This document shows, in pieces, positions 2,461-27,824 of a stretch of 32,000 nt of DNA. The notes beneath the pieces were generated by a model. That model searched no databases. It had not been told where the DNA came from and saw nothing but the letters and a program-made list of their open reading frames with translations. The DNA comes from Akkermansia muciniphila ATCC BAA-835 (GTDB lineage Bacteria > Verrucomicrobiota > Verrucomicrobiia > Verrucomicrobiales > Akkermansiaceae): positions 60,001 through 92,000 of the forward strand of contig NC_010655.1 in assembly GCF_000020225.1 (NCBI RefSeq). The letters run 5' to 3'. Numbering within the stretch: position 1 is the stretch's first letter; the number at the start of each line of letters is the position of its first letter. Position numbers and translations under genes: made by a program.

Positions 2461-3240
2461 TTATCTGTTCAGCAGGGAACATTCCGCCCGCACATAACCG
2501 CCGTAATTATTGCAGAACGCCTTGTACACGGCAGGGCCCATATTCGTTTCGCAATAGTACTTTACGGTAATACAGCCGTTTTCGCGTTCCATATTAAGAA
2601 AACGGCTGGACAGCAGTACCAGATTGCTCTGGTAATTCCACAAAGCCATGTCACGCTCCATTTCCTCATGAATCCTGTCGCATATAAAGCTCTCCGGAGG
2701 AGGAAACAGAATGGCGCTGACAACACCGATCAGACAGATTCCCGGAATGACCCCTACGGCAAGAACCCCGTGACATTTCCTGACCAGGGGAAGGTGATTC
2801 CTGAATTTCCGGAAAATGGTGAAACGGAATAAATAACCCGCCAGCAGCGCCACCGGGAAGAACACATTCACGTACTCAAAAGCCAGGCTCATTCCTCCAA
2901 GAACGAAAAAACCGATGCCCTTCCATACCTTCCGGTAAACAGGAATGCAGGTACAAAGAAACACGTACAGAAGATATCCCAGCAGGCAAAGGAAAGGCAG
3001 AAGCGTTCCCGTAAAAATATGCTCCACCATGCAGTCCCACGGATATTCCCTGCTGGGAGCGAAGGCTTCATGGAAAAACATGCATACCATGCTCAAAAGC
3101 ACCAGCGCGGCAAGAAGGATGGTCTTTACTTTTTTTGACTCATACAAAAGCCACAGCAAAACAACTCCGAACGGCAATAAATAGCAACCTATATTGTTGA
3201 ATACAGTGGACAACATGGGAATATGAGGAAAGAAATTCAT
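2461..3240 (-). CDS. Hypothetical polytopic membrane protein with a Cys-rich soluble C-terminal domain
   Basis: 259-aa ORF with about 6 hydrophobic segments, followed by a roughly 90-aa Cys-containing tail (..CDRIHEEMERD..CITVKYYCETN..FCNNYGGYVRAEC). G+C is visibly lower than in the neighbours. I recognise no family. Confidence 0.55.
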   Translation of the reverse strand: MNFFPHIPMLSTVFNNIGCYLLPFGVVLLWLLYESKKVKTILLAALVLLSMVCMFFHEAFAPSREYPWDCMVEHIFTGTLLPFLCLLGYLLYVFLCTCIPVYRKVWKGIGFFVLGGMSLAFEYVNVFFPVALLAGYLFRFTIFRKFRNHLPLVRKCHGVLAVGVIPGICLIGVVSAILFPPPESFICDRIHEEMERDMALWNYQSNLVLLSSRFLNMERENGCITVKYYCETNMGPAVYKAFCNNYGGYVRAECSLLNR

Positions 3241-3397
3241 GGAGCGGATACGGATGAATGAGCGGTTAACAACTAAAACGCAGCAGCGGCTTCAGCAACA
3301 ATAATTGGAAATAAAATAAATTCAAACACTCGTTTTCAAATAACCCATAAAAAATCATATTCTTTTCACGAAAAGACGTTCAGCCGGGCTCTCCCAC

Positions 3398-3685
3398 TTG
3401 ACAAAACAACCCTCTGAAAAGGATAGTAACGCTCTTGTGAAACACTACCTTTTCATCCAGGCCGTCCTCCTTCCGGTTCTCTTCTGCCTTCCCCAATGCA
3501 GCCGCAAACCGCTCCTTCCGGAATATACGCCTCTGTGTTCCGGAATGGTGCCGGGAGAACACACTGCCCACCGGGCCCTCCGGGCACGGGAAAACAGAAC
3601 CTACCGGGTCGGCCCGAAAGGCGGCGTATATTACATCAATTCCCATAATAAAAAAGTTTACATCAAATCCAGGAGGGTGCAATAG
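3398..3685 (+). CDS. Possible small secreted protein with a C-terminal GPxGGxYYI..KKxY motif
   Basis: 95-aa ORF with a TTG start. It has a basic N-region, a hydrophobic stretch (LFIQAVLLPVLFCLPQC, signal or lipobox-like) and the C-terminal RTYRVGPKGGVYYINSHNKKVYIK. I recall that last motif as a short basic module in many small bacterial proteins. A minus-strand ORF of similar length overlaps, so coding status is uncertain. Confidence 0.4.
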   Translation: MTKQPSEKDSNALVKHYLFIQAVLLPVLFCLPQCSRKPLLPEYTPLCSGMVPGEHTAHRALRARENRTYRVGPKGGVYYINSHNKKVYIKSRRVQ

Positions 3686-3803
3686 AAGACCACACGGTTT
3701 CTCCGCAATTTTCCAAATGGGAAACAAATAACCGTCCTATCATGTTCTCATTGTATAATTGAGAAAATATTCCGTCCAAAAAACTCATTAAACTCATTTT
3801 CTT

Positions 3804-3832
3804 CTTGCCAAAATGGAAGAGGACGGGTAATG
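3804..3832 (+). promoter_or_regulatory. Sigma-70-like promoter candidate for tRNA-His (TTGCCA-N17-TAATGT)
   Basis: TTGCCA at 3804-3809, a 17-nt spacer and TAATGT at 3827-3832. It lies about 24 nt upstream of the tRNA 5' end. Motif match only. Confidence 0.35.
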
Positions 3833-3855
3833 TCTGCCGCACCACAACACTAAAT

Positions 3856-3931
3856 GGTGTCGGTAGTTCAATGGTAGAGCCCCAGATTGTGATTCTGGTC
3901 GTTGCGGGTTCGAGTCCCGTCCGACACCCCA
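3856..3931 (+). tRNA. tRNA-His (anticodon GTG), with encoded G-1 and 3' CCA
   Basis: Hand-folded cloverleaf: G(-1) + acceptor GTGTCGG/CCGACAC, D stem GTTC/GAGC, anticodon stem CCAGA/TCTGG with loop TTGTGAT, T arm GCGGG-TTCGAGT-CCCGT. Discriminator is C3928 and CCA is at 3929-3931. The extra 5' G pairing with C73 is the His identity element. Confidence 0.93.
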
Positions 3932-3950
3932 TCCCCTTTCCTTCATAAAA

Positions 3951-3974
3951 AGAGCACTTATAGTGCTCTTTTTT
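3951..3974 (+). terminator. Rho-independent terminator after tRNA-His
   Basis: Stem AGAGCAC / GTGCTCT with a short loop, followed by a T run (3969-3974). An A run precedes it, so it could act in both directions. Confidence 0.6.
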
Positions 3975-3996
3975 ACTATCCCCCAGCCCTTTCCGC

Positions 3997-4668
3997 ATGC
4001 GTAATCCAGAATTCGTCAAAGCCGCTTTTTCCGCTATTGCCCCGCGCTATGTGGCTACCAACCATGTGCTGAGCATGGGTGTGGACCTGCTATGGCGCCA
4101 GCGCGTCGTTCAGCTTGTCTCCGAATGGAAACCGGAAAACCTTCTGGATCTGGCGACTGGAACGGGAGACCTGGCCCTGGCCATCCTGAACGCAATGCCG
4201 GAAATCCGCCTCACCGGGTCCGACTTCTGCCAGCCCATGCTGGACATAGCGGCCAGGCGGGGACTGGATCATCTGGTTTGCGCAGACGCCATGAACCTGC
4301 CCTTCCCCTCCGCCTCCTATGATGCGGTCACTGTCGCCTTTGGCCTGAGGAACATGGCCAGCTATCCGGACGCCCTGCGGGAAATGGGCCGTATGCTGCG
4401 TCCGGGGGGCCATCTGCTCATTCTGGATTTTTCCCTGCCTGAGAGCCTGTTGAAAAGCCCTTACCGGTTTTATCTGCACCGCATCCTTCCCGTCATCGCA
4501 GGGTGGATGACCGGCCACCGGGAAGCATACGACTACCTGGCGGACAGCATTGAAGCCTTCCCCTGCGGGCAGGCCATGAAGACTCTGCTGCGGGAATGCG
4601 GCTACAGCAACATCACGGCGGAAGCTCTGAACGGGGGAATTGCCAGCATTTACACAGCCCAGCGATGA
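3997..4668 (+). CDS. ubiE: Demethylmenaquinone/ubiquinone C-methyltransferase (UbiE/MenG family)
   Basis: 223 aa. Contains FSAIAPRYVATNHVLSMGVDLLWR, the SAM motif LLDLATGTGDLA, then AFGLRN and GGHLLILDFS, all characteristic of UbiE/MenG. Confidence 0.88.
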   Translation: MRNPEFVKAAFSAIAPRYVATNHVLSMGVDLLWRQRVVQLVSEWKPENLLDLATGTGDLALAILNAMPEIRLTGSDFCQPMLDIAARRGLDHLVCADAMNLPFPSASYDAVTVAFGLRNMASYPDALREMGRMLRPGGHLLILDFSLPESLLKSPYRFYLHRILPVIAGWMTGHREAYDYLADSIEAFPCGQAMKTLLRECGYSNITAEALNGGIASIYTAQR

Positions 4669-6593: not shown

Positions 6594-7443
6594 TTAAAGG
6601 GAGTCCACGAGGGCTGCCAAATCATCATCATATACGAACTTGCATCGATCTCCCCGTTTCTTGAACAGTTCAAACAGGCGCGGCATGTCCGTATCCGAAA
6701 CGGAGAGGCCCAGCGCACTCAGGCGCATTTTCACGGCGTGCCTTCCAGAATGCTTGGTCAAAGGCAGTTCCGTAGCGCCCCAGCCGATTTCCTCCGGGTC
6801 CATCACTTCATACGTGCTGCGGTTTTTCAGCACGCCGTCCTGGTGAACAGCCGAATGCGGTCCACATTGGGAACATGGGATTTCAGATAGGAAATCAGGC
6901 GGAAATATTCCTCCGGCATCGTGAACCCCACCGTATCCGGAATATTGATGACGGCAGCGCCCGCGTCAATTACAGACTCTACAATCTCCGCCAGGAATTC
7001 CGGCTCCGTGCGGGAAGCGTCCTCTGCGGAAAACTGCACTTCCCCGCACAAATCGGAAGCCATGGCAACGGACTTTACGGCCATGTTCCTGATTTGTTCC
7101 CGGCTTTTTCCCAGCTTGTATTTCCGGTGGATGGGGGAGGTGGCCACCACCAGATGGATGCGCTCCCGTTCCCCGGCTGCCTTCAACGCTTCATGGGCGG
7201 CGATGTCCTTTTCCACGCAGCGGGCCAGCCCGCAGACACGGCTTTTTCCGTGCGTTCCGCCACGGCCCGGACAACTCGGAAATCGCCGTCTGAAATAACG
7301 GGGAAGCCCGCTTCAATAATATCCACGCCCAGCGTTTCCAGCTGCATGGCCACCTGTATTTTCTGCTCCACGTTCATCGCCGCGCCGGGGCACTGTTCCC
7401 CGTCTCTCAGCGTCGTATCAAAAATATGTATTTGTTCTTTCAT
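6594..7443 (-). pseudogene. Decayed 2-isopropylmalate synthase (LeuA/HMGL-like) paralogue
   Basis: Three consecutive minus-strand ORF fragments (7443-7183, 7216-6827, 6833-6594) each align with successive parts of the intact LeuA at 27991-29547. Examples: [20 protein letters not shown].. and ERERIHLVVATSPIH..AEDASRTEPEFL..INIPDTVGFTMPEE. The third fragment is HQDGVLKNRSTYEVMDPEEIGWGATELPLTKHSGR..KFVYDDDL. Frame changes occur near 7230 and near 6845. About 100 codons, including the HxH metal site, are missing, as is the whole C-terminal regulatory domain. Confidence 0.85.
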
Positions 7444-7597
7444 TTACAGTAAAAATGTTAAGAGGTCGTTCCTTCGGGAACTGCGCACGGAAAACGTTCC
7501 TGTTACGGAATCATTCCTTTGGTGCAAATCAAGACAGCCGTTTACTTCCCTCGCCCCGGAACGGCTCACCGGCGCATATCAAGATATCTTCACGGAC

Positions 7598-7648
7598 TTA
7601 CCGTCCGAGAAGCAGCAATAGACGACCTTGCAGAAACAGGGTATTCAT
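7598..7648 (-). CDS. Candidate leucine leader peptide (16 aa, MNTLFLQGRLLLLLGR) upstream of the leuA-like pseudogene
   Basis: The reverse complement of 7598-7648 reads atg aat acc ctg ttt ctg caa ggt cgt cta ttg ctg ctt ctc gga cgg taa. Seven of 16 codons are Leu. Five are consecutive and use five different Leu codons. It lies 154 nt upstream of the pseudogene ATG (7443). The intervening RNA is rich in mutually complementary GGAAC/GTTCC and AGCCGTT/AACGGCT segments. Confidence 0.5.
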   Translation of the reverse strand: MNTLFLQGRLLLLLGR

Positions 7649-7981
7649 CTTGCTTGTTTTTACTATAAATCCACCCTGAATGGGGAACGGGACAGACAAT
7701 GCTCTTTAAAACCTGCTCTGTCAAGACACCTCAAATACATATGACATTGTTAGAGTTGTCTCATCCATTGAAATTTTGAAAGAGAGTGCCTTCCTTCACA
7801 AAAAAACTGCCTGTTAAACAAGGTTATAATGTACGAATAAACATAGAATTCCAATAACTGGAACTCATTCCTGAAATCAGTTCCAGATGAGAAAATTATG
7901 TAACCCCAAACTGGATAATACGCCTAATAACAATCTATTAAGATTACCATAGGATAAGGTTTGACACATTATTCACAACTC

Positions 7982-8017
7982 AACGGCCTATTGCTATTCA
8001 CAGCAATAGGCCGTTTT
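7982..8017. terminator. Strong hairpin immediately 3' of recJ (terminator-like)
   Basis: Perfect 14-bp stem AACGGCCTATTGCT (7982-7995) / AGCAATAGGCCGTT (8002-8015) with a 6-nt loop. The T tract (8014-8017) lies on the plus-strand side. On the recJ (minus) side no U tract follows, so its function as the recJ terminator is uncertain. Confidence 0.45.
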
Positions 8018-9757
8018 CTACATTTCCCGGTGGGAACGTATTTCCTGAATGGAAATGGACAGGGAGGCGCGGCCGCGGTACACGTTGCGGTCAATCGTGA
8101 AAGCGATATCCCAGGGAGGATTGGGAAGCTCCCGTTCCGCTCCGTTGAAGAAAATAGCGTCACGCTCCACGATGCCCTGGCGCATGAAAAGCTTCAGATG
8201 ATTGGTTCCCACGCGCTTGGGCGGTTCCGTGGGAAAAACGTCGGAACTCATGAAGAGAGGCTGTGGATTGGAGTTGCCGAAAGGTTCCAGCTTTTCATAG
8301 CTGTCCAGCAAATCCAGCGTCAACGCCTGGAAGGACACTTCCATGTCTATGTTGAGCACGGGGCTGCGCTGTTCCTCCGTCGTGGTTTCAGACACATAAC
8401 GGTTGAATGCCCGGCGGAAATCGTCCATGCGGGATTCTTCAATCACCAGCCCCGCCGCCATGTCATGGCCGCCGCCGGAAACCAGCGTATCCGCACAATG
8501 GTGAATGGCCTGCACCAGGGACACGCCGGGAATGGAACGGCCGGAGCCCTTCCCCACGCCGCTTTCGTCAAAGGCGATGACGAAGGTCGGCTTGTGGTAC
8601 CGCCTCATCAGCTGGGAGGCTACAATGCCCACCACGCCGGGATGCCACGCGCGGGAACCCAGCACAATGACGTTATCCCTCTCCGGGTCAAAGGAGTTAT
8701 GAAGCATTTCCACCGCATCCGTCCGGATGGCCTCCTCTTCCTCCTGCCGCTTGCGGTTGTGGGAATCCAGCATTTGGGCAAGCTGCACGGCCCTCCTGGC
8801 ATCCATGGTCAGCAGGAGTTCCAACGCATCCATGGGGGAATCCATGCGCCCGGCGGCATTAATGCGCGGGCCTATCCTGAACCCCACGTGGGCGGCGTTC
8901 AGGAAGCCCGCGTGGTTGACGGAGTCGGAAGGTCGGATGCCCGCTATTTCCGTCAGGGTTTTGAGGCCCGTATGGCGGCTGTGCGCCAGCCTGCCCAGGC
9001 CGTGGCGAACCAGAATCCTGTTTTCCGCCACCAGGGGAACAATGTCCGCCACGGTTGCCACGGCCACCAGGTCCAGATAAAGTTTCAGGTCAAAGGTTTT
9101 CAGTTTCCGCTCCTTCAGGAGGGCATGCGCCAGCTTGAAGACTACGCCCGCGCTGCACAGATAAGTATATGGGCTGTTTTCCTCAATTTTGGCATTGACC
9201 ACCGCCGCTGCATCCGGACGCCCCAAAGGGCCCGCCTCATGGTGATCCAGAATGATTACGTCTATCCCCAGACTGTTAAGCATGTCCACCTCCTTCACGG
9301 AGGAAGTGCCGCAGTCCACCGTAATAAGCAGGCTGGGAGGGTCCGCACATTCGCAAAGGCAACGCTTGATGCCGGCCTCGCTGAGTCCGTAGCCTTCCCG
9401 GGAACGGACGGGAATAAAATACTGGGGATCCAGGTCATAAGCCATCAAAATGGCCCGGAGAAGCGCCACGGAGGTGACACCGTCCACATCATAGTCCCCA
9501 TAAATGCACACGGTTTCCCCTTCATCCACGGCCCGGAAAATGCGGTCCACGGCAGCCCTCATTTCCCCCATCAGGAAAGGGTCGCTCAGGTGGGAGAGCC
9601 TGGGGTCCAGAAAGAGTTCCGTTTCCATTCCCCCGGTGAAGCCGCGCTGCAGCAGGAGCTGCTTGACCAGCAGGGGCAGTTCCGCAGGAAACGCTTTCAA
9701 GACCGGATCATCCTCCTTCACGGAAGGGCGTAGAGTCCAATGAAAACCCGGCGTCAT
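8018..9757 (-). CDS. recJ: Single-stranded-DNA-specific 5'-3' exonuclease RecJ
   Basis: 579 aa. DHH-family motifs are present (VCIYGDYDVDGVTSVALL, ITVDCG, VIILDHHEAG) along with DHHA1-type GGGHDMAAG. Overall RecJ architecture. Confidence 0.9.
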   Translation of the reverse strand: MTPGFHWTLRPSVKEDDPVLKAFPAELPLLVKQLLLQRGFTGGMETELFLDPRLSHLSDPFLMGEMRAAVDRIFRAVDEGETVCIYGDYDVDGVTSVALLRAILMAYDLDPQYFIPVRSREGYGLSEAGIKRCLCECADPPSLLITVDCGTSSVKEVDMLNSLGIDVIILDHHEAGPLGRPDAAAVVNAKIEENSPYTYLCSAGVVFKLAHALLKERKLKTFDLKLYLDLVAVATVADIVPLVAENRILVRHGLGRLAHSRHTGLKTLTEIAGIRPSDSVNHAGFLNAAHVGFRIGPRINAAGRMDSPMDALELLLTMDARRAVQLAQMLDSHNRKRQEEEEAIRTDAVEMLHNSFDPERDNVIVLGSRAWHPGVVGIVASQLMRRYHKPTFVIAFDESGVGKGSGRSIPGVSLVQAIHHCADTLVSGGGHDMAAGLVIEESRMDDFRRAFNRYVSETTTEEQRSPVLNIDMEVSFQALTLDLLDSYEKLEPFGNSNPQPLFMSSDVFPTEPPKRVGTNHLKLFMRQGIVERDAIFFNGAERELPNPPWDIAFTIDRNVYRGRASLSISIQEIRSHREM

Positions 9758-20687: not shown

Positions 20688-23234
20688 ATGATCTCATCCT
20701 TTCCCAGAATTCTGATCTTTCTGATGATGGCAAGCCTGCATGTATTCGCGGAAGACATGCAGAAAAACAGGGAACGGGAAGCCGCCCGCGCAGTCATCAT
20801 GCGGACCGTGCCGTCTCTGGCCGCCTCCCCGGAAAAACTGCACCTGGAAACCATTGAAAAAGAAGACGGATATGATGTTTTCGAGACGAAAGCCTCCGGA
20901 GGAGTGCTGACGATCCGGGGAAGCAGCGGCACAGCCCTTTGCCGGGGATTCTATGATTTTCTGAAAACGAACCGTCTGGGAATGGTATCCTGGGAAAACA
21001 AAGACATTCGCTGGCCGGCACAGCTGCCGGACACCGCGCCGCGCCGCATCGTTTCTCCTTTCCGCAACCACTATTATTTCAATGTGGTCACCTATGGATA
21101 CACGATGCCCTACTGGACCTGGGAACGCTGGGAAAAGGAAATAGACTGGATGGCTCTGCACGGCATCAACATGCCCCTGGCTCTGGTTGCCACGGAGGGG
21201 ATCGCCGTCCGGGTCTGGAAGCAACTGGGGCTGACGGAAAAAGAAATAGAAGAATTTTACACGGGGCCGGCCCATCTTCCCTGGCAGCGGATGGGAAACA
21301 TCGTCAATCATGACGGCCCCCTGCCCGCCAGCTGGCACAAGGAACAAATCGCCCTGCAGCACCGCATCCTGCACAGGATGAAATCCTTGGGCATGACCCC
21401 CATTTGTCCCGCTTTTTCCGGTTTCGTTCCCCGGGGAATCCTCCGCCTTTATCCGGAAGCGAAGCTTCACCGGCTGGGGTGGGGAGGCTGGCCTCAAAAA
21501 AACCACGCCCATTTTCTTTCTCCGGAAGAGCCCCTTTTCCTTAAAATAGGACGCCTGTACATGCAGGAATGGCAGAAGGAATTCGGAAAAAACACCTATT
21601 TTCTTGCGGACTCCTTCAATGAAATGGAACTTCCCGAAAACAAAGGAGGCGTCGAAGCCCGCAACAATATGCTCAGCTCCCTCGGGGAACAAATCTACCG
21701 CTCCATTTCCTCCACCAACCCGGATGCGGTATGGGTCATGCAGGGATGGATGTTCGGATACCAGCGCAATATCTGGAACGCAGATACTCTGAAGGCTTTG
21801 CTCAGCAAGGTTCCGGACGATAAGATGCTCCTTCTGGACCTGGCGGCGGATTACAACAAGACTTTCTGGCGCAACGGCATGAACTGGGACGTCTTCAAGG
21901 GTTTTTTCAATAAACCGTGGGTTTACAGCGTGGTTCCCAACATGGGCGGCAAATGCGCCATGACCGGGGTAATGGATTTTTACGCCAACGGCCATCTGGA
22001 AGCCTTGAACTCTTCATCCAGGGGGCGCCTCTCCGGAATGGGCATGGCCCCGGAAGGAATAGAAAATAACGATGTGATCTACGAACTGATCACGGATGCC
22101 GCATGGAGGAACCGCCAGGAAAACGTGGAACAATATCTGGAAAATTATTGCCGTGCCCGATACGGAAATTATCCGGACAGCATGAAGGAAGCCTGGAATC
22201 TGTTCCGCCGCACAGCCTATTCCAACTTAAAGGACCATCCCCGTTTCAACTGGCAAATGAAACCCGGCACCCGCGGCTGTTCCGTAAACACAAGCGAAGA
22301 TTTTCTGAAAGGCCTCTCCCTGTTCGTCAACACCCGCGGCCTGGAACAATCCCCCCTGTTCCGCCAGGATGCCGTTGAGATGGCAGTCCATTATCTTGGC
22401 ATACGCATGAATGAAGCCATCCGGGCCGCCCAGGAAGCTCTGGACGAACAGGATCAGGAAAACGCGGAAAAATGCATGGCCTATTTCCGCAAATACGCCC
22501 TTCTGGCAGATTCCCTTCTGGAAGGGCACCCCACCTGGAGGCTGTCGCGCTGGATATCGTTTGCCCGGTCTCACGGAACTTCTCCTGAGGAAAAAAACAA
22601 GTATGAACAAAACGCCAGAAGGCTGGTGACCAGATGGGGGCCTCCCGTAGACGACTACGCCGCCAAAATATGGAGCGGCCTTATCAGGGACTACTATCTG
22701 CCGCGCTGGGAACACTTTATTCAGAGCCGTCTTTCCGAAAAAAATCCGGATATGGGAGCATGGGAGGAAAAATGGGTCCGTTCCACTGGCGTAAGCGCTG
22801 CGCACGCTCCCGGAGATCTGGTCAACGCCTGCCGCCAGGCTATCCGGGAGGCGCCGCCCCTGCCTTCTTCCCTGAAAAGAAAAGCAGCCGGATCAATTAT
22901 AGGAAACTGGACCTCCGCGACGGTATCCACGGAATGGAGTTATCTGGACTGGCCCGTTTCTTCCGCTGATCTTGAAAAACTCCGGGGGGTGCGCTTCGTC
23001 TTCACTTCCGGCAGCCATGCCCTAGAAATAGACGGCGTCGAACTCCTGGAAAACGGCAAAGTAATCGCCCACGACCGGCACGCCGGATTGGCAGGCAAGC
23101 CTTCCCGCGGGAATTTCTACAAACTTTCCCTTCCCAAGGGAATCCATGCCAACAACGGATGCTCCCTCAGAGCCAGGGTCCGCTCCGTGGGCGGAAAATC
23201 CTCCAATGGGAAACTGGAACTGATTAAAGAATGA
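20688..23234 (+). CDS. Secreted GH89-family alpha-N-acetylglucosaminidase (NAGLU-like) with an extra C-terminal beta-rich module
   Basis: 848 aa. Signal peptide MISSFPRILIFLMMASLHVFA. NAGLU-type core is present: YYFNVVTYGYTMPYWTWERWEKEIDWMALHGINMPLA, GPAHLPWQRMGN, FSGFVP, ADSFNEM, WVMQGW, VPNMGG. The last roughly 130 aa look like a carbohydrate-binding module. Confidence 0.85.
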   Translation: MISSFPRILIFLMMASLHVFAEDMQKNREREAARAVIMRTVPSLAASPEKLHLETIEKEDGYDVFETKASGGVLTIRGSSGTALCRGFYDFLKTNRLGMVSWENKDIRWPAQLPDTAPRRIVSPFRNHYYFNVVTYGYTMPYWTWERWEKEIDWMALHGINMPLALVATEGIAVRVWKQLGLTEKEIEEFYTGPAHLPWQRMGNIVNHDGPLPASWHKEQIALQHRILHRMKSLGMTPICPAFSGFVPRGILRLYPEAKLHRLGWGGWPQKNHAHFLSPEEPLFLKIGRLYMQEWQKEFGKNTYFLADSFNEMELPENKGGVEARNNMLSSLGEQIYRSISSTNPDAVWVMQGWMFGYQRNIWNADTLKALLSKVPDDKMLLLDLAADYNKTFWRNGMNWDVFKGFFNKPWVYSVVPNMGGKCAMTGVMDFYANGHLEALNSSSRGRLSGMGMAPEGIENNDVIYELITDAAWRNRQENVEQYLENYCRARYGNYPDSMKEAWNLFRRTAYSNLKDHPRFNWQMKPGTRGCSVNTSEDFLKGLSLFVNTRGLEQSPLFRQDAVEMAVHYLGIRMNEAIRAAQEALDEQDQENAEKCMAYFRKYALLADSLLEGHPTWRLSRWISFARSHGTSPEEKNKYEQNARRLVTRWGPPVDDYAAKIWSGLIRDYYLPRWEHFIQSRLSEKNPDMGAWEEKWVRSTGVSAAHAPGDLVNACRQAIREAPPLPSSLKRKAAGSIIGNWTSATVSTEWSYLDWPVSSADLEKLRGVRFVFTSGSHALEIDGVELLENGKVIAHDRHAGLAGKPSRGNFYKLSLPKGIHANNGCSLRARVRSVGGKSSNGKLELIKE

Positions 23235-23559
23235 ACGGCTTAAATTCAGTTAGAATTATCCACTTTAGGTTTGACAAATATCACCAAAATTAACTTATAA
23301 ATAGTCATAAATTATTTTGAATTAAAATAGATCTATATTTCAACCATTGTAAGTCAGATCTTCTACATCAAGGGAACGATTTTTGAAAACATCTATCTTG
23401 ACTTATGTATGTTGTTGTATGCAGATAAATCATCTACACGAAGTATATTGCACTAGATACACAAAGCAATGGAGAAAGAGGAATACAAGTAAATATTTGA
23501 AGCTATTATTAAAGTGAACGAAAACCATGTAGTGGATAAACCTTGCTAAGACAATAAAC

Positions 23560-23781
23560 ATGGAGAAACAAATGGATAAGGATGACGAAAACAAACCAAA
23601 GACAAAACGAGGCAAGAGGACATACACAACTACTTTGATTGGGGCGAAAGAATATAATACCGAAAAAATCCATGCAGTAATTTCAAATTTTAACAAACCC
23701 GACAATCTATTAAGTGGAAAACAATATCTCAATATTTCCAAAAAAGTTCGCAAAAAAATAACATCCATAATAATTGACTAA
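23560..23781 (+). CDS. Hypothetical small basic protein (73 aa) at the left end of the islet
   Basis: Lys-rich ORF (MEKQMDKDDENKPKTKRGKRTYTT..). Its purine-rich sense strand is typical of AT-rich coding DNA. There is no recognisable motif and no clear RBS. The overlapping antisense ORF 23430-23768 looks like a shadow. Confidence 0.3.
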   Translation: MEKQMDKDDENKPKTKRGKRTYTTTLIGAKEYNTEKIHAVISNFNKPDNLLSGKQYLNISKKVRKKITSIIID

Positions 23782-23949
23782 TCTTCAGTCTACAACATAC
23801 TTGATAAAAAAGGAATGTGCTTTTATGTAGTTGAAAATTGACCATTCCGTAACTTTTTCTCTTGAAAGCAGGATACACATGAATGGAATTGAGAGCTTTT
23901 GAATACTGTTCACAATGGTTTTTGATAAATTGGCCGAGTTGTTCGTGGC

Positions 23950-23978
23950 TTGATAATTTTAGAAGATGGTATTATAAT
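23950..23978 (+). promoter_or_regulatory. Sigma-70-like promoter candidate for the methyltransferase (TTGATA-N17-TATAAT)
   Basis: TTGATA at 23950-23955, an exact 17-nt spacer and a consensus TATAAT at 23973-23978. It lies 39 nt upstream of ATG 24017. Motif match only. Confidence 0.5.
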
Positions 23979-24016
23979 TCTTGACATCTATTTTCGTACT
24001 AACTAATCACACGTCC

Positions 24017-25335
24017 ATGCAGGAAGCAGGAAGCAGGAAGCAGGAAGCAGGAAGCAGGAAGCAGGAAGCAGGAAGCAGGAAGCAGGAAGCAGGAAGCAGG
24101 AAGCAGGAAGCAGGAAGCAGGAAGCAGGAAGCAGGAAGCAGGAAGCAGGAAGCAGGAAGCAGGAAGCAGGAAGCAGGAAGCAGGAAGCAGGAAGCAGGAA
24201 GCAGGAAACGCTTCCTCTCCAATGTGATGATTTCGAATTAACTAACGAATATCTAGATTATTTATCAGAGCAAATAATCACATATATAGGAAACAAGCGA
24301 TCCCTGCTTGATTTTATAGGAAAAGGGATAGAAGTGGTTTGTAAGAGGTTGGGAAGGAACAAAATAAGCAGTTTGGATGCTTTTTCTGGTTCTGGGGTGG
24401 TTTCCCGATATTTGAGACGCTTTTCTTCAAGCCTCCATTGTAACGACTTGGAAGATTATTCAAGGGTTATCAATGAGTGCTACATGACCAATGAATCTTC
24501 TGTAGATATTATCTTGCTTAAAAACGAGCTATCTTGCCTTCATAAAAGAATTGAAGAATCTTGGCATGAAGGAGTTATTACAAAAATGTATGCTCCTGCC
24601 GATGAAGATAATATAACACAAAATGATAGGGTTTTCTACACAAAAAGGAACGCTATGTACATTGATACAGCAAGGCAAGCGATTGATGAACTTGCTCCTG
24701 ATCTAAGAAAGTTCTTCTTGGCTCCACTGTTGTATGAAGCCTCTGTGCACAACAATACATCAGGTGTTTTCAAGGGGTTCTATAAAAATCACGAAGGGAT
24801 TGGGCAGTTTGGGGGACATGGGAAAAATGCACTAAAACGCATATTGGGAAATATTGAACTGAAACTCCCTGTTTTTTCTCGATTTGATGTTGACTGCTAC
24901 ATTCACCAACAGGATGCACGACAACTAATGGAAACAATACAGGCGGTTGATCTTGCATATTTTGACCCTCCTTATAACCAACACCCCTATGGCTCAAATT
25001 ATTTCATGCTCAATTTAATAGCAAATAATAAAAAACCACTGTCATTTTCCCGAGTTTCTGGAATCCCTGACGACTGGAACCGTTCTCTCTATAATAAACG
25101 CCAATCAGCTCAGAATGAATTGTTTTCAACCGTCCAAGCCTGCCCCGCAAAGTTCATCCTAATATCTTATAATTCAGAGGGATTTGTGAAATACAACGAC
25201 TTTATCAACTTCCTCTCCAAAATAGGTAAATTGCAATCCTTACAAACTGATTATAACACATTCAGAGGGTGCAGAAATCTTAACGAACGCCCAATAAAAG
25301 TTAAGGAATTCCTCTTCCTTGTCGAAAAATTCTAA
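24017..25335 (+). CDS. N6-adenine DNA methyltransferase (Dam/D12-like, motif I before DPPY), with its 5' end interrupted by the heptamer tract; ATG and enzyme body are out of frame as sequenced
   Basis: The enzyme frame is open from 24007 to 25335. It encodes ..EQIITYIGNKRSLLDFI.. (24268-24318), motif I LDAFSGSGVV (FSGSG at 24382-24396) and motif IV FDPPYN (DPPY at 24964-24975). The C-terminal motif is FILISYNSEG. The only upstream ATG (24017) enters the repeat in a different frame and terminates at TAA 24239-24241. The first in-frame start in the enzyme frame is GTG 24334, downstream of the conserved N-terminal motif. Confidence 0.8.
24019..24207 (+). repeat. Perfect tandem heptanucleotide repeat (GCAGGAA)x27
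   Basis: Counted by hand: 189 nt with 27 uninterrupted units. The G of ATG 24017-24019 is the first base of the tract. It is stop-free in all six frames: (AGSRKQE)n forward and (FLLPASC)n reverse. Confidence 0.98.
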
Positions 25336-26056
25336 TAGCCATCTCACTATGTCTCATAAAATTGCATTGCGTACCCAGCGGGAAGGTACAATTATTAATA
25401 CTACTTCATCCAAGCAGGAAAAATTATTACGTCAAGCTGTGAAATCTGTTTCTATGCGTCTGAAAAAGAAATTTCCCGGAATCACCCTTGAATGGGAACC
25501 ACAAGCTAAATTGATAGATATTATTGTCCACCTTCGAACCCAATTCCCTGATGTTGACTTTGCAGCCCCCTCGTGCGCTTCTTCAATGAAACCAGACGGT
25601 GGAATTCTTTATATGAAAAGTGAAGATGAACGGCGATTTCCTATCCTCATATCAGAAAAGAAAAACCAAGGTACAAATGATATGAGGGCAAAGGAAGGAA
25701 AAAAAAGACAAGCTCAGGGGAATGCCATAGAAAGATTAGGAAAAAACGTCATTGGTTTCCGAGCTTCCATGATTAGAGAGTCAATTTTTCCCTTTGTTTG
25801 TTTTGGAGATGGTTGTGATTTCGTTGAAGGTTCATCCATAAGAGACCGTGTCATCACCATAGCCATGTTCGGTCAGCTCAACAAAGAATATGTTTATGCT
25901 CAAGGTCGAGGAGAACTTTTTAACAGGGGATCTTTCTATTTCCGAGAAAAACAATGGACTGAACAAGAAATGGCAGACATCTCGTTCTCTATAGCCAGCA
26001 AAGCCATCTTCTATTATTTTTCCAGATATGGAGAATCAACTTTTTTCGATAATTGA
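25319..26056 (+). CDS. EcoRI-family Type II restriction endonuclease
   Basis: It matches the EcoRI sequence as I recall it. SSMKPDGGILYMK..ILISEKKNQG corresponds to SSIKPDGGIVEVK..VLVAEAKHQG (PD..E.K catalytic motif; D at 25595-25597, E at 25655-25657). QAQGNAIERLGKNV corresponds to AAGNAIERSHKNI (extended-chain recognition motif, 25718-25735). FPFVCFGDGCDF corresponds to FPYVLFLEGSNF. The start is either TTG 25319 (overlaps the MTase stop; N-terminus MSKNSNSHLTMSHK resembles EcoRI MSNKKQSNRLTEQHK) or ATG 25349. Confidence 0.8.
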   Translation: MSKNSNSHLTMSHKIALRTQREGTIINTTSSKQEKLLRQAVKSVSMRLKKKFPGITLEWEPQAKLIDIIVHLRTQFPDVDFAAPSCASSMKPDGGILYMKSEDERRFPILISEKKNQGTNDMRAKEGKKRQAQGNAIERLGKNVIGFRASMIRESIFPFVCFGDGCDFVEGSSIRDRVITIAMFGQLNKEYVYAQGRGELFNRGSFYFREKQWTEQEMADISFSIASKAIFYYFSRYGESTFFDN

Positions 26057-26368
26057 TTGGAGCACATTTTTAAAATTATTCAAAAAATATTCTAGATTTT
26101 AATATTTAGCAAATTACTCAGATGAAAAAACAGAGAAGCTCAATAAAACTAGACTAAAATAAACAATCTCGATATTTTACAGAGAATTTCGACTCAAAAC
26201 GTTCAAAATCAGTCGATTTTAAATTAAATAATTCTGAATTTAATTTGCTTATTAGGAAAAACCACATCCATTCCGTGCCTTTTACGTTAGAAAATTCCGC
26301 CGTCCGAACCAGGAAACAGCATGCCCGGCGCCTTGCGGAATCCCCGCACGGAACAATCGGGCGGAAAG

Positions 26369-26737
26369 TTACATTTCGAACCGGTGCAGGTTTTCCACAT
26401 GGGAATAACCCATCTTCCTGAGCGCTTCCAGCGCCTTGTCCGCTCTCTTTCCCGTACGGCAATACAGCATAATCACGGCGTTCTTATCGGGAAGAAGCCG
26501 GGGGGCCAGTTGTTCCACCTCATCTGCCGGAATATTCAAGGCGCCCTCCTTATGTCCCGTGCGGTACTCATCCAGAGTCCGGACATCCACCAGCACAACA
26601 GGACGCGCGGCGGCGCCTTCCGGAGACACAACCATGGCGGAGGAAGCAGGGTCACGTTCCGCATTCCTGCCTTTCAGCCAAACGAAGAGGGCCGTCAGCC
26701 CGGTCACCATGACCACGTACAAAACCACGTTTTTCAC
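26369..26737 (-). CDS. Membrane-anchored single-domain rhodanese (sulfurtransferase)
   Basis: 122 aa with an N-terminal TM segment (VVLYVVMVTGLTALFVWL). Rhodanese motifs are present: LVDVRTLDEYRTGHKEGALNIP and the active-site loop YCRTGKRA. Confidence 0.8.
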   Translation of the reverse strand: MKNVVLYVVMVTGLTALFVWLKGRNAERDPASSAMVVSPEGAAARPVVLVDVRTLDEYRTGHKEGALNIPADEVEQLAPRLLPDKNAVIMLYCRTGKRADKALEALRKMGYSHVENLHRFEM

Positions 26738-26885
26738 GCGGCCACTTCACTAAACCGCGGCGAAGTAATCAAGAGAAAACAACGCCCTGCCCACATGCGC
26801 AGGCGTCATTTGCCGCCCACGCAGCACCGGCGGCTCCGTTCCACGGGAAAACAATGCGCCGGATACAGAAGAAATACGCAGAAGC

Positions 26886-26911
26886 GGGAAGGGACAGAGC
26901 TTTCCCTTCCC
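26886..26911 (-). terminator. Hairpin 3' of the FAH-family gene (terminator candidate)
   Basis: 9-bp stem GGGAAGGGA (26886-26894) / TCCCTTCCC (26903-26911). On the minus strand it is followed by a moderately T-rich GCTTCTGCGTATTTCTTC. Confidence 0.4.
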
Positions 26912-26945
26912 CCTCCACATTCAACAAGGCCGGAGAACCATTCCC

Positions 26946-27824
26946 CTACCCCTCATCATCAATTACCACAGCCTGGGAAGCGAAGCCAAAAGCGGGGCTT
27001 CCCCATTCCACCACATCCCCGGGTTTCAAATATACCGGAGGCTTCATCCCCATCCCCACGCCTCCCGGAGTGCCGGTGGAAACCACATCTCCGGGCCATA
27101 AAGTCATGAACCGGGAAACATAGGCAATCAGACGCGGAACAGGCCAGATCAAGCCGTCCGTATTGCCGCTCTGGCGCACTTCCCCGTTCACTTTCAATTC
27201 CAGAGGAATGCCGGAGCCGTCCCCAAGTTCATCAGCGGAAATGAACGTGGGCCCCATCGGGGCAAAGCTGTCATAGCTCTTCCCCTTGGTCCACTGCCCG
27301 CCATGTTCCAGCTGGTTGGCCCTTTCCGAATAGTCGCACATCAGGGTATAGCCGCTGATAGCCCGTGCGGCCTCCTCTGGGGAAGCGTTTTTCAGCACAT
27401 CCTTAATCACTACGGCCAATTCAATCTCATAATCCAGCTTGTCGCAGCCGGGCGGATACAAAACAACATCACTGCAGGAAGTAATGGCGGAAGGCGACTT
27501 CAGAAAAACAGCCGGTTCCTGCACGGAATCCCCGTCAAACTCCTTCGCATGGTCTGCATAACTTTTTCCCAGGCACACCAGCTTGGAAGGGGAACAGGGC
27601 AGCGCGGTATCAATCATCCATTCAGGGTTGACAGCTTTGGCGGCGGCACTATCCAGAAACGCGACAATGCGCTTCATTTCCTCTCCGCAGGAACCCGTTT
27701 CTCCGCAAATGCAGGCATCAGCCTCGGCAAGCACGGAGTCCGCCGCCAGGTATTCCCCGCGGCTTTCGCTCCACAGAGCCATGATGCGCTCCGCCTGGTC
27801 ATTCAGGTAAAATCTGATCTTCAC
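26946..27824 (-). CDS. Fumarylacetoacetate hydrolase (FAH) family protein
   Basis: 292 aa. Contains CLGKSYADHAKEF, PAVFLKSPSA, DYEIELAVVI, and WPGDVVSTGTPGGVGMG..YLKPGDVV, which is typical of the FAH / 2-keto-4-pentenoate hydratase fold. Confidence 0.85.
   Translation of the reverse strand: MKIRFYLNDQAERIMALWSESRGEYLAADSVLAEADACICGETGSCGEEMKRIVAFLDSAAAKAVNPEWMIDTALPCSPSKLVCLGKSYADHAKEFDGDSVQEPAVFLKSPSAITSCSDVVLYPPGCDKLDYEIELAVVIKDVLKNASPEEAARAISGYTLMCDYSERANQLEHGGQWTKGKSYDSFAPMGPTFISADELGDGSGIPLELKVNGEVRQSGNTDGLIWPVPRLIAYVSRFMTLWPGDVVSTGTPGGVGMGMKPPVYLKPGDVVEWGSPAFGFASQAVVIDDEG

Follow-up and report, generated by a model that had tools for sequence, protein, structure and literature searches.

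A heptanucleotide repeat as a likely ON/OFF switch of a Type II DNA methyltransferase in Akkermansia muciniphila

Some Type II restriction–modification (R-M) genes of Helicobacter pylori, Neisseria gonorrhoeae and mycoplasmas are phase-variable via homopolymer or dinucleotide tracts. Here we analyse a locus of Akkermansia muciniphila in which a (GCAGGAA)n tract separates the start codon from the body of a Type II DNA methyltransferase gene. It lies in a stretch of 32,000 nt of the ATCC BAA-835 genome (contig NC_010655.1, positions 60,001 to 92,000), the whole of which is called the window. The likeness to the pathogen genes lies in a frame-switched R-M component and the proposed modulation of a barrier. 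However, their tracts are mostly mono- or dinucleotide and short, and sit in small genomes, whereas the Akkermansia tract is a 189-nt heptanucleotide array in a verrucomicrobial commensal.

Switching by a simple sequence repeat (SSR) is described for Type III mod genes (modA, modB and modD of Haemophilus and Neisseria, and modH of H. pylori; PMC5909438). They share with the present locus a non-triplet SSR in the 5' coding region of an N6-adenine methyltransferase gene, with tract length setting the ON or OFF frame and differing between strains. In contrast to them, the Akkermansia enzyme is a Type II alpha-class methyltransferase of Dam fold, its tract begins inside the start codon, and its gene is followed by that of a separate EcoRI-family endonuclease. 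SSR-driven methylation switching extends beyond Type III to the Type I genes hsdM and hsdS (PMC7383803) and to the poly-G Type IIG gene Cj0031 of Campylobacter jejuni (PMC4889913). In hsdM, as here, the tracts lie in the 5' region and ON/OFF switching is predicted (PMC7383803). These enzymes are of other classes than the present one. Type I and Type IIG enzymes cannot restrict without the methylase or specificity subunit, which makes their OFF state inherently safe, whereas the Akkermansia endonuclease is an independent protein. The Akkermansia repeat unit has 7 nt, and heptanucleotide units go unmentioned in the Type III (PMC5909438) and Type I (PMC7383803) surveys consulted.

Two forms of phase variation have been reported in A. 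muciniphila itself. Poly-G phase variation of Amuc_1413 in strain MucT, published in 2026 (PMC13055324), concerns the same organism and the same mechanism (slippage, frameshift and nearby out-of-frame stops), but the gene serves exopolysaccharide export and the repeat is a homopolymer of nine G. The 2x150-nt Illumina reads of that study are unable to size a 189-nt tract, and the locus described here was not reported in it. Inverton-driven switching of Type I specificity, termed 'epigenetic phase variation' (PMC11741434), likewise produces clonal methylome heterogeneity in this species, with bet-hedging proposed as its role; it differs in proceeding by inverted-repeat recombination in hsdS, which changes specificity and is not an ON/OFF event. 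Structural variants, not SSRs, were screened in that work, and the heptanucleotide tract is unmentioned. No publication describing the tract was found in the literature, and searches with the repeat sequence and the neighbouring locus tags gave nothing relevant.

A frame-setting repeat at the start codon

A single tandem array was detected in the whole 32-kb window by Tandem Repeats Finder (TRF). It consists of (GCAGGAA)x27 at 24019–24207, with period 7, 27.0 copies, 100% matches, 0 indels and a score of 378; a perfect 189-nt array of period 7 is far beyond chance. The G of ATG 24017 is the first base of the first GCAGGAA unit. The elements that set or depend on the reading frame are as follows.

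23950–23978 (+): promoter-like TTGATA-N17-TATAAT, 38 nt upstream of ATG 24017; consensus match only
24017–24019 (+): start codon of the methyltransferase in ON alleles; ON proteins elsewhere begin MQEAGSRK...
24019–24207 (+): (GCAGGAA)x27 SSR, the frame-setting element, from TRF; elsewhere in A. muciniphila, between the same flanks, 1–28 units long
24208–25335 (+): body of an alpha-class (Dam-fold, Pfam D12) N6-adenine DNA methyltransferase, 375 codons, assigned from Pfam, PADLOC and an AlphaFold (AF2) model
24225–24241 (+): stops of the OFF frames, TGA 24225–24227 (n = 2 mod 3) and TAA 24239–24241 (n = 0 mod 3, as in the window)
24268–24309 (+): conserved N-terminal motif EQIITYIGNKRSLL (motif X equivalent), ahead of the first canonical internal start
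24334–24336 (+): GTG, the first canonical start in the methyltransferase frame; its product is 333 aa without the N-terminal motif

Translation from ATG 24017 in the window gives M(QEAGSRK)9RFLSNVMISN, ended by TAA 24239–24241. The methyltransferase occupies another frame, open from 24007 to 25335 and read as ...(SRKQEAG)n..TLPLQCDDFELTNEYLDYLSEQIITYIGNKRSLLDFI..., in which GTG 24334 is the first ATG, GTG or TTG after the stop TAA 24004–24006; the body therein (24208–25335) has no start codon of its own ahead of that GTG. Among the other nearby starts, ATG 24222 immediately hits TGA 24225–24227, and GTG 24224 and ATG 24227 share the frame of ATG 24017. The distance from 24017 to 24208 is 191 nt, or 2 mod 3, and therefore ATG 24017 and the methyltransferase share a frame only at n = 1 mod 3. 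This rule fits real alleles, since annotation gives full-length proteins of 413, 406 and 385 aa for n = 16, 13 and 4, respectively. The locus thus shows the marks of an SSR contingency locus: a perfect repeat in the 5' coding region that begins in the start codon, a 7-nt unit not divisible by 3, and out-of-frame stops close downstream. Programmed frameshifting or initiation within the tract was ruled out, as inspection of the GCAGGAA unit revealed neither a slippery heptamer nor, in any of its frames, a start or near-cognate start codon. Upstream, the sigma-70-like TTGATA-N17-TATAAT pair is the best consensus match in 23200–26400 (11/12 positions).

The methyltransferase body is 100% identical to 'DNA adenine methylase [Akkermansia muciniphila]' and matches Pfam PF02086 (D12; 8.7e-18) and PADLOC MTase_II (1.3e-115). 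An AF2 model built from 44 homologues has a predicted local distance difference test (pLDDT) value of 84 and finds E. coli Dam as its best fold match in the PDB; sequence searches of the PDB, whether single-sequence or profile, gave no match. The score fell short of the cut-off of the Dam family TIGR00571 (18.5 bits vs 114.85); the matches are confined to the broader Pfam D12 class and the Dam fold. Motif I DAFSGSG (FxGxG, S-adenosylmethionine-binding), motif IV DPPY (catalytic) and DPPYNQHPYGSNYFMLN are invariant in the homologues.

Particular weight falls on the N-terminal motif. Its Q, T, Y, G, N, K, R, L and L are invariant in the 44 homologues (56–81% identity), as is the whole block [E]-x4-L-x2-Q-I-I-T-Y-[IL]-G-N-K-R-x-L-L, which is always preceded by 15–45 residues. 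The QIITY[IL]GNKRxLL block corresponds to the N-terminal KWAGGKxxLL element of Dam. Because GTG 24334 falls after the block, its product would lose the invariant motif. Public annotations rescue OFF alleles via ATA, CTG or GTG starts (24274–24336), yielding proteins of 353, 349, 343 and 333 aa; the 333-aa form (P0121), annotated in many OFF genomes, is carried by 89 contigs. These 'DNA adenine methylase' entries hide the frameshift and are annotation rescues, not evidence.

A preliminary description, made from the sequence alone, had set out much of this layout. The uninterrupted tract, the peptide from ATG 24017 to its TAA, the other frame open over 24007–25335 with no start until GTG 24334, the third frame ending at TGA 24225–24227 and the TTGATA-N17-TATAAT pair near the ATG were all reproduced, and its frame rule (n = 1 mod 3 ON, the window OFF) agrees with the annotated n = 16, 13 and 4 proteins. 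It was also right that a conserved N-terminal block precedes GTG 24334, but ITYIGNKRSLLDFI begins at 24277 (and ends at 24318), not at 24280. The AGGA in each unit, which it had read as a Shine–Dalgarno (SD)-like core, was dropped as a meaningful signal: no SD motif was found upstream of any of the ~25 long open reading frames (ORFs) in the window, and for this reason the AGGA is probably irrelevant. Judging by these genes, A. muciniphila appears largely to initiate without an SD sequence.

On the opposite strand, a 71-aa ORF made wholly of repeat (..LLPASCF..; 24007–24222, minus strand) is annotated in some complete genomes; it is almost certainly an artefact of the stop-free repeat and was rejected as a real gene.

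Tract-length variation among genomes

Tract length is the only feature that varies between the window and otherwise identical genomes. The complete genome CP174100.1 has n = 27 and 0 differences from the window over 16,652 nt. In CP071807.1, also complete, n = 26, and the gap in the tract is the sole difference over 16.6 kb. The complete genome CP198990.1 likewise has n = 26 and, over the same 16.6 kb, departs otherwise only by an unrelated 700-bp deletion. CP072050.1, a further complete genome, carries 28 units, two of them defective (GCGGAA and GCAGA, net −3 nt), and is annotated in frame (440 aa); the defective units are probably long-read deletion errors, not real interruptions. Moreover, two sister complete genomes with consecutive accessions, each with 1–2 mismatches to the window, fall on opposite sides of the switch, with n = 16 (ON, 413 aa) in CP027006.1 and n = 17 (OFF) in CP027005.1.

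Across 30 loci, the flanks CACACGTCCAT (upstream of the tract) and ACGCTTCC (downstream of it) are invariant, and the tract holds 3, 4, 5, 12, 13, 14, 16, 17, 26 or 27 units. Exact look-up of predicted ON proteins showed that those for n = 1, 7, 10 and 19 are present in public data, as are the in-frame proteins for n = 4, 13 and 16. The predicted proteins for n = 22, 25, 28, 31, 34 and 37 were absent from the look-up, as expected because few assemblies span more than ~150 nt of repeat. ON alleles are thus represented by n = 1, 4, 7, 10, 13, 16 and 19, and OFF alleles by n = 3, 5, 12, 14, 17, 26 and 27. All examined loci keep the 375-codon body intact, whatever the frame state; by frame, OFF is the consensus in 5/7 complete genomes.

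Tract lengths from short reads carry an assembly caveat, and long tracts are fully trustworthy only in complete genomes. Illumina assemblies systematically fail to resolve long tracts: five short-read scaffolds (L009, L011, L103, L108 and L112) break into runs of N after 7–8 repeat units, and de Bruijn assemblers can presumably collapse period-7 arrays. On the other hand, both n = 13 and n = 16 were obtained repeatedly with different assemblers, n = 16 in one complete genome and three metagenome assemblies. A metagenome scan with a flank-plus-tract pattern returned only two contigs, and the species-level genome scan for homologues, in whose output the A. muciniphila representative was absent, contributed no A. 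muciniphila tract length. Given the variation seen on otherwise identical sequence, we are highly confident that the tract is a hypermutable frame switch.

A Type II cassette in a low-GC island

Downstream of the methyltransferase lies a second gene, and the two share an island of distinct base composition.

23235–26368 (no strand): low-GC island carrying the whole cassette, ~38% GC vs ~58% around it, from the composition profile
25067–25095 (+): second, weaker promoter-like site, within the methyltransferase gene (3' part), 10/12 positions; consensus match only
25349–26056 (+): EcoRI-family Type II restriction endonuclease, 235 aa, beginning 13 nt after the methyltransferase stop

The endonuclease matches Pfam PF02963 (3.3e-15) and EcoRI structures (phmmer, 2e-12). 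It keeps PD...ExK and GNAIER, and its PDGG...SEKK aligns to EcoRI D91/E111/K113. With adjacent M and R genes on the same strand, FxGxG and DPPY in M and PD-(D/E)xK in R, the methyltransferase appears from its sequence context to be the M half of an orthodox Type II R-M pair encoded by separate genes. The endonuclease is intact and identical in every one of the 30 loci long enough to contain it, and 5292 blocks of the searched collection contain the exact protein. The same tight M-then-R layout was found in 18/80 distant homologue loci from unrelated phyla, and the presence of the pair in such phyla indicates that the cassette is mobile. The promoter-like site at 25067–25095 could drive the endonuclease independently.

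In EcoRI, the GNAIER segment reads the inner AATT. Since the Akkermansia endonuclease keeps this segment, the recognition site of the cassette very probably has an AATT core. The names of 120 endonuclease homologues say 'EcoRI family' only and give no specificity. Counts of RAATTY, GAATTC, CAATTG and AATT in the window revealed no avoidance (~40 RAATTY sites per 29 kb). The island itself holds 9 RAATTY sites including two GAATTC, for example at 25306–25311 and 25602–25607, and one GAATTC stands 22 nt ahead of the methyltransferase stop. A lysine-rich 73-aa ORF (23560–23781, plus strand) lies in the island upstream of the promoter-like site at 23950–23978; no match to it was found in Pfam, NCBIfam or PADLOC, many genomes have it annotated as a gene (66–73 aa), and it is not obviously a controller protein.

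The island (~3.1 kb) lies between a GH89 alpha-N-acetylglucosaminidase gene and a rhodanese gene. In the matching complete genomes the locus stands at ~80 kb, adjoining the GH89 gene, a neighbour that would fit Amuc_0060. The island differs by only 0–4 mismatches between A. muciniphila haplotypes with 2–8% divergence in their flanking core genes, which suggests that it was recently acquired and spread by recombination, or in a sweep. In a sister Akkermansiaceae species, whose methyltransferase is 81% identical, the gene begins ATG AAC AGC AGG AAG CAG GAG GTT (MNSRKQEV), that is, ATGAACA-GCAGGAA-GCAGGAG, where a perfect unit is followed by an imperfect one, both in frame. The tract therefore arose by expansion of ordinary N-terminal coding sequence. 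An SSR at the 5' end was found in none of the 80 homologue loci compared at species level, and on this comparison the tract is specific to the A. muciniphila lineage.

Several side observations concern the surroundings. Lentisphaerae loci with a homologous methyltransferase carry (AAGTGTA)x4–7 arrays 1–2 kb upstream (L063, 2026–2056; L076, 1181–1232). With the 700 bp missing from CP198990.1 (window 26420–27119), that genome has lost the rhodanese gene, and its FAA-hydrolase gene has an altered 5' end. Further dips in GC at window positions 2500–4000 and 7000–8500 (46–48% vs ~58–60%) may be other acquired segments.

The adenine at the third position of RAATTY is the same adenine whose methylation blocks EcoRI-type cleavage of GAATTC. 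In published work, it is this third base that is methylated in RAATTY, and RA6mATTY methylation has been reported in MucT, two in-house isolates and three infant samples. A preprint on mEnrich-seq assigned the activity to the REBASE ORF AmuORF1905P, 'conserved in all 112 genomes', and another study found RAATTY 94.1% methylated in A. muciniphila genomes recovered from gut metagenomes. Taken from its name alone, AmuORF1905P would be Amuc_1905, presumably a different gene from the cassette methyltransferase. Homologues of the cassette methyltransferase are abundant in Treponema and Campylobacter, both listed in published work as RAATTY-methylating, and the C. jejuni RAATTY methylase has 367 aa. 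RAATTY is therefore a plausible site of the cassette enzymes. If their site is RAATTY, GAATTC or AAATTT, the OFF state would do no harm in the presence of a constitutive RAATTY methylase, and the methylome would not reveal the switch.

The proposed switch, its rivals and its relatives

Considered as a whole, the statement that the (GCAGGAA)n contingency locus is a functional ON/OFF switch of the methyltransferase is in our judgement likely. Replication slippage would add or remove whole 7-nt units at high frequency, one or a few at a time, a step size supported by sister genomes that differ by ±1 unit. When n = 1 mod 3, ATG 24017 would be joined to the enzyme, giving a full-length protein with an N-terminal (QEAGSRK)n/3 extension. 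When n = 0 or 2 mod 3, translation would end after ~70–75 codons and no active enzyme would be produced, because no canonical start can rebuild the invariant N-terminal motif; the window, with n = 27, would be OFF. Such switching would presumably be reversible within a culture.

The endonuclease may follow the methyltransferase. We propose that it is co-silenced in the OFF state via lost translational coupling and transcriptional (Rho) polarity, because the gap between the genes is 13 nt, the endonuclease gene has no strong promoter of its own, and ~1.1 kb of untranslated RNA would lie upstream of it in OFF cells. The tract would then toggle the whole restriction barrier, a bet-hedging between defence and DNA uptake, instead of or besides a methylation regulon, and the RA6mATTY methylation attributed to another methylase would further buffer self-restriction. 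The possible outputs are therefore control of the whole restriction barrier, extra methylation with a regulon, or nothing that selection sees; of these we favour control of the R-M unit. A more specific version can be put forward only tentatively: the tract switches the complete Type II cassette, which would otherwise be lethal when out of balance, while the constitutive orphan AmuORF1905P pre-protects AATT-core sites (a 'licensed' barrier), and/or the ON state adds methylation at under-methylated RAATTY-type sites. Methylation added in this way could underlie the site-specific shifts in a probiotic strain colonising mice (PMC11741434) and, if true, would constitute a true phasevarion in Verrucomicrobiota.

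Several points weigh against a functional switch. RAATTY methylation is reported in every isolate examined, so no ON/OFF methylation phenotype has been seen. The OFF state prevails in 5/7 complete genomes, viable all the same, despite an intact endonuclease, which is unexpected for a Type II system without other protection and needs explaining, for instance by another methylase or by co-silencing of the endonuclease. The island is nearly invariant and so young that its intact ORFs cannot be read as purifying selection, and ORF integrity was dropped as evidence of it. Low-level initiation may occur after the tract at the near-cognate starts called by NCBI (ATA, CTG). Tract lengths from short reads can be collapsed or gapped, as the five loci with N runs illustrate, and heterogeneity within a culture, like reversibility, is deduced from differences between assemblies, not from reads.

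The first three of these points also favour the alternative that survives best, which we nevertheless hold to be unlikely: the tract is a neutral hypermutable microsatellite, the methyltransferase is redundant beside the constitutive AmuORF1905P, and the endonuclease is constitutively active. The reported RA6mATTY methylation is assigned to AmuORF1905P, and the probable AATT core would be covered by it if the site is RAATTY, GAATTC or AAATTT; the lack of RAATTY avoidance in the window points the same way. However, the specificity of the cassette M and R enzymes is predicted no further than the AATT core, and the second promoter that would serve a constitutive endonuclease is a weak consensus match only. 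ON alleles are common, and every in-frame length from n = 1 to 19 was found, and the 27-unit tract is perfectly pure. Its start-proximal position and non-triplet unit are, moreover, hallmarks of selected contingency loci.

Initiation at ATA and CTG is very inefficient in bacteria. This counts against a second alternative, that the methyltransferase is made whatever the tract length from ATA 24274 or 24286, CTG 24304 or GTG 24334, possibly by reinitiation, with the tract a variable leader that at most tunes expression. In its favour, NCBI annotation uses such starts (349, 353, 343 and 333 aa), the leader ORF ends 33–47 nt ahead of ATA 24274, and the organism is not reliant on SD sequences. It would indeed be required if the gene were the RAATTY methylase, given that the type strain is methylated despite n = 26 or 27; yet AmuORF1905P is by name Amuc_1905, and the cassette locus adjoins what appears to be the GH89 gene Amuc_0060, at ~80 kb. 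No canonical start exists ahead of GTG 24334, use of that GTG removes the invariant E, L, Q, T, Y, G, N, K, R, L and L, and the motif lies downstream of the start in the sister species and in all 44 homologues. We consider this explanation improbable. That tract length or its variation is an assembly or sequencing artefact has a negligible chance of being true, for although short-read assemblies gap or may collapse the tract and the defective units of CP072050.1 resemble long-read deletion errors, n = 27 recurs in the independent complete genome CP174100.1, n = 26 in two others, and n = 16 in one complete genome and three metagenome assemblies from different assemblers.

A functional ON/OFF switch thus remains our preferred reading, and the wider claims of the preliminary description can be placed beside it. 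The slipped-strand ON/OFF architecture is upheld by a non-triplet tract with ON and OFF alleles on an intact ORF. The comparison of tract length between strains that it had proposed gives n = 26, 26, 27, 27 and ~28 on an identical 16.6-kb background and 16 and 17 in sister genomes. Its 'Type II-like' label was correct in that this is a Type II M gene; the gene is, however, no solitary mod-type methylase, and the EcoRI-family endonuclease 13 nt downstream had been missed. The phasevarion it envisaged, with a methylation-dependent regulon, gained no ground: nothing supporting it was found, and RAATTY methylation is reported in all isolates. It had also held that cognate methylation regardless of n mod 3 would speak against the switch, a point on which the reported methylation bears if the enzyme recognises RAATTY. 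The genome, which it took to be verrucomicrobial, is that of A. muciniphila. Its belief that no SSR phasevarion was described in this group agrees with our literature search, which found no report of an SSR-driven methyltransferase switch for the phylum Verrucomicrobiota; SSR phase variation as such has been reported there, for Amuc_1413 (PMC13055324), which is not a methyltransferase.

The locus matters because A. muciniphila MucT is the reference strain of a next-generation probiotic and its genome is described as highly stable. The published study of MucT stability over 1,000 generations relied on 2x150-nt reads; with a 189-nt repeat that exceeds the length of a 150-nt read, the tract escapes short-read resequencing. 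Were restriction the output of the switch, then DNA uptake, the efficiency of conjugation and sensitivity to phages would vary by stock and clone, which, if true, bears on the still-difficult genetics of A. muciniphila. If methylation is its output, the switch would give a gut commensal a clonal epigenetic heterogeneity whose source has gone unrecognised. A general question also arises, namely how an orthodox Type II system tolerates an OFF methylase.

Among known systems, EcoRI provides the homologous endonuclease (E = 2e-12), with PD...E-x-K and GNAIER kept. The Akkermansia endonuclease differs in its length (235 aa vs 277 aa) and in a divergent C-terminal half. M.EcoRI is absent from the Pfam, PADLOC and PDB matches of the cassette methyltransferase, which has the Dam-fold D12 domain, and the order of the cassette is M then R. 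The mechanism is the classic design of a contingency locus or phase-variable methyltransferase. This locus is set apart by its 7-nt unit, by a tract of up to ~190 nt that starts within the initiation codon, by an orthodox Type II system whose endonuclease is an independent protein, and by its host, a gut commensal of the Verrucomicrobiota that has applied importance.

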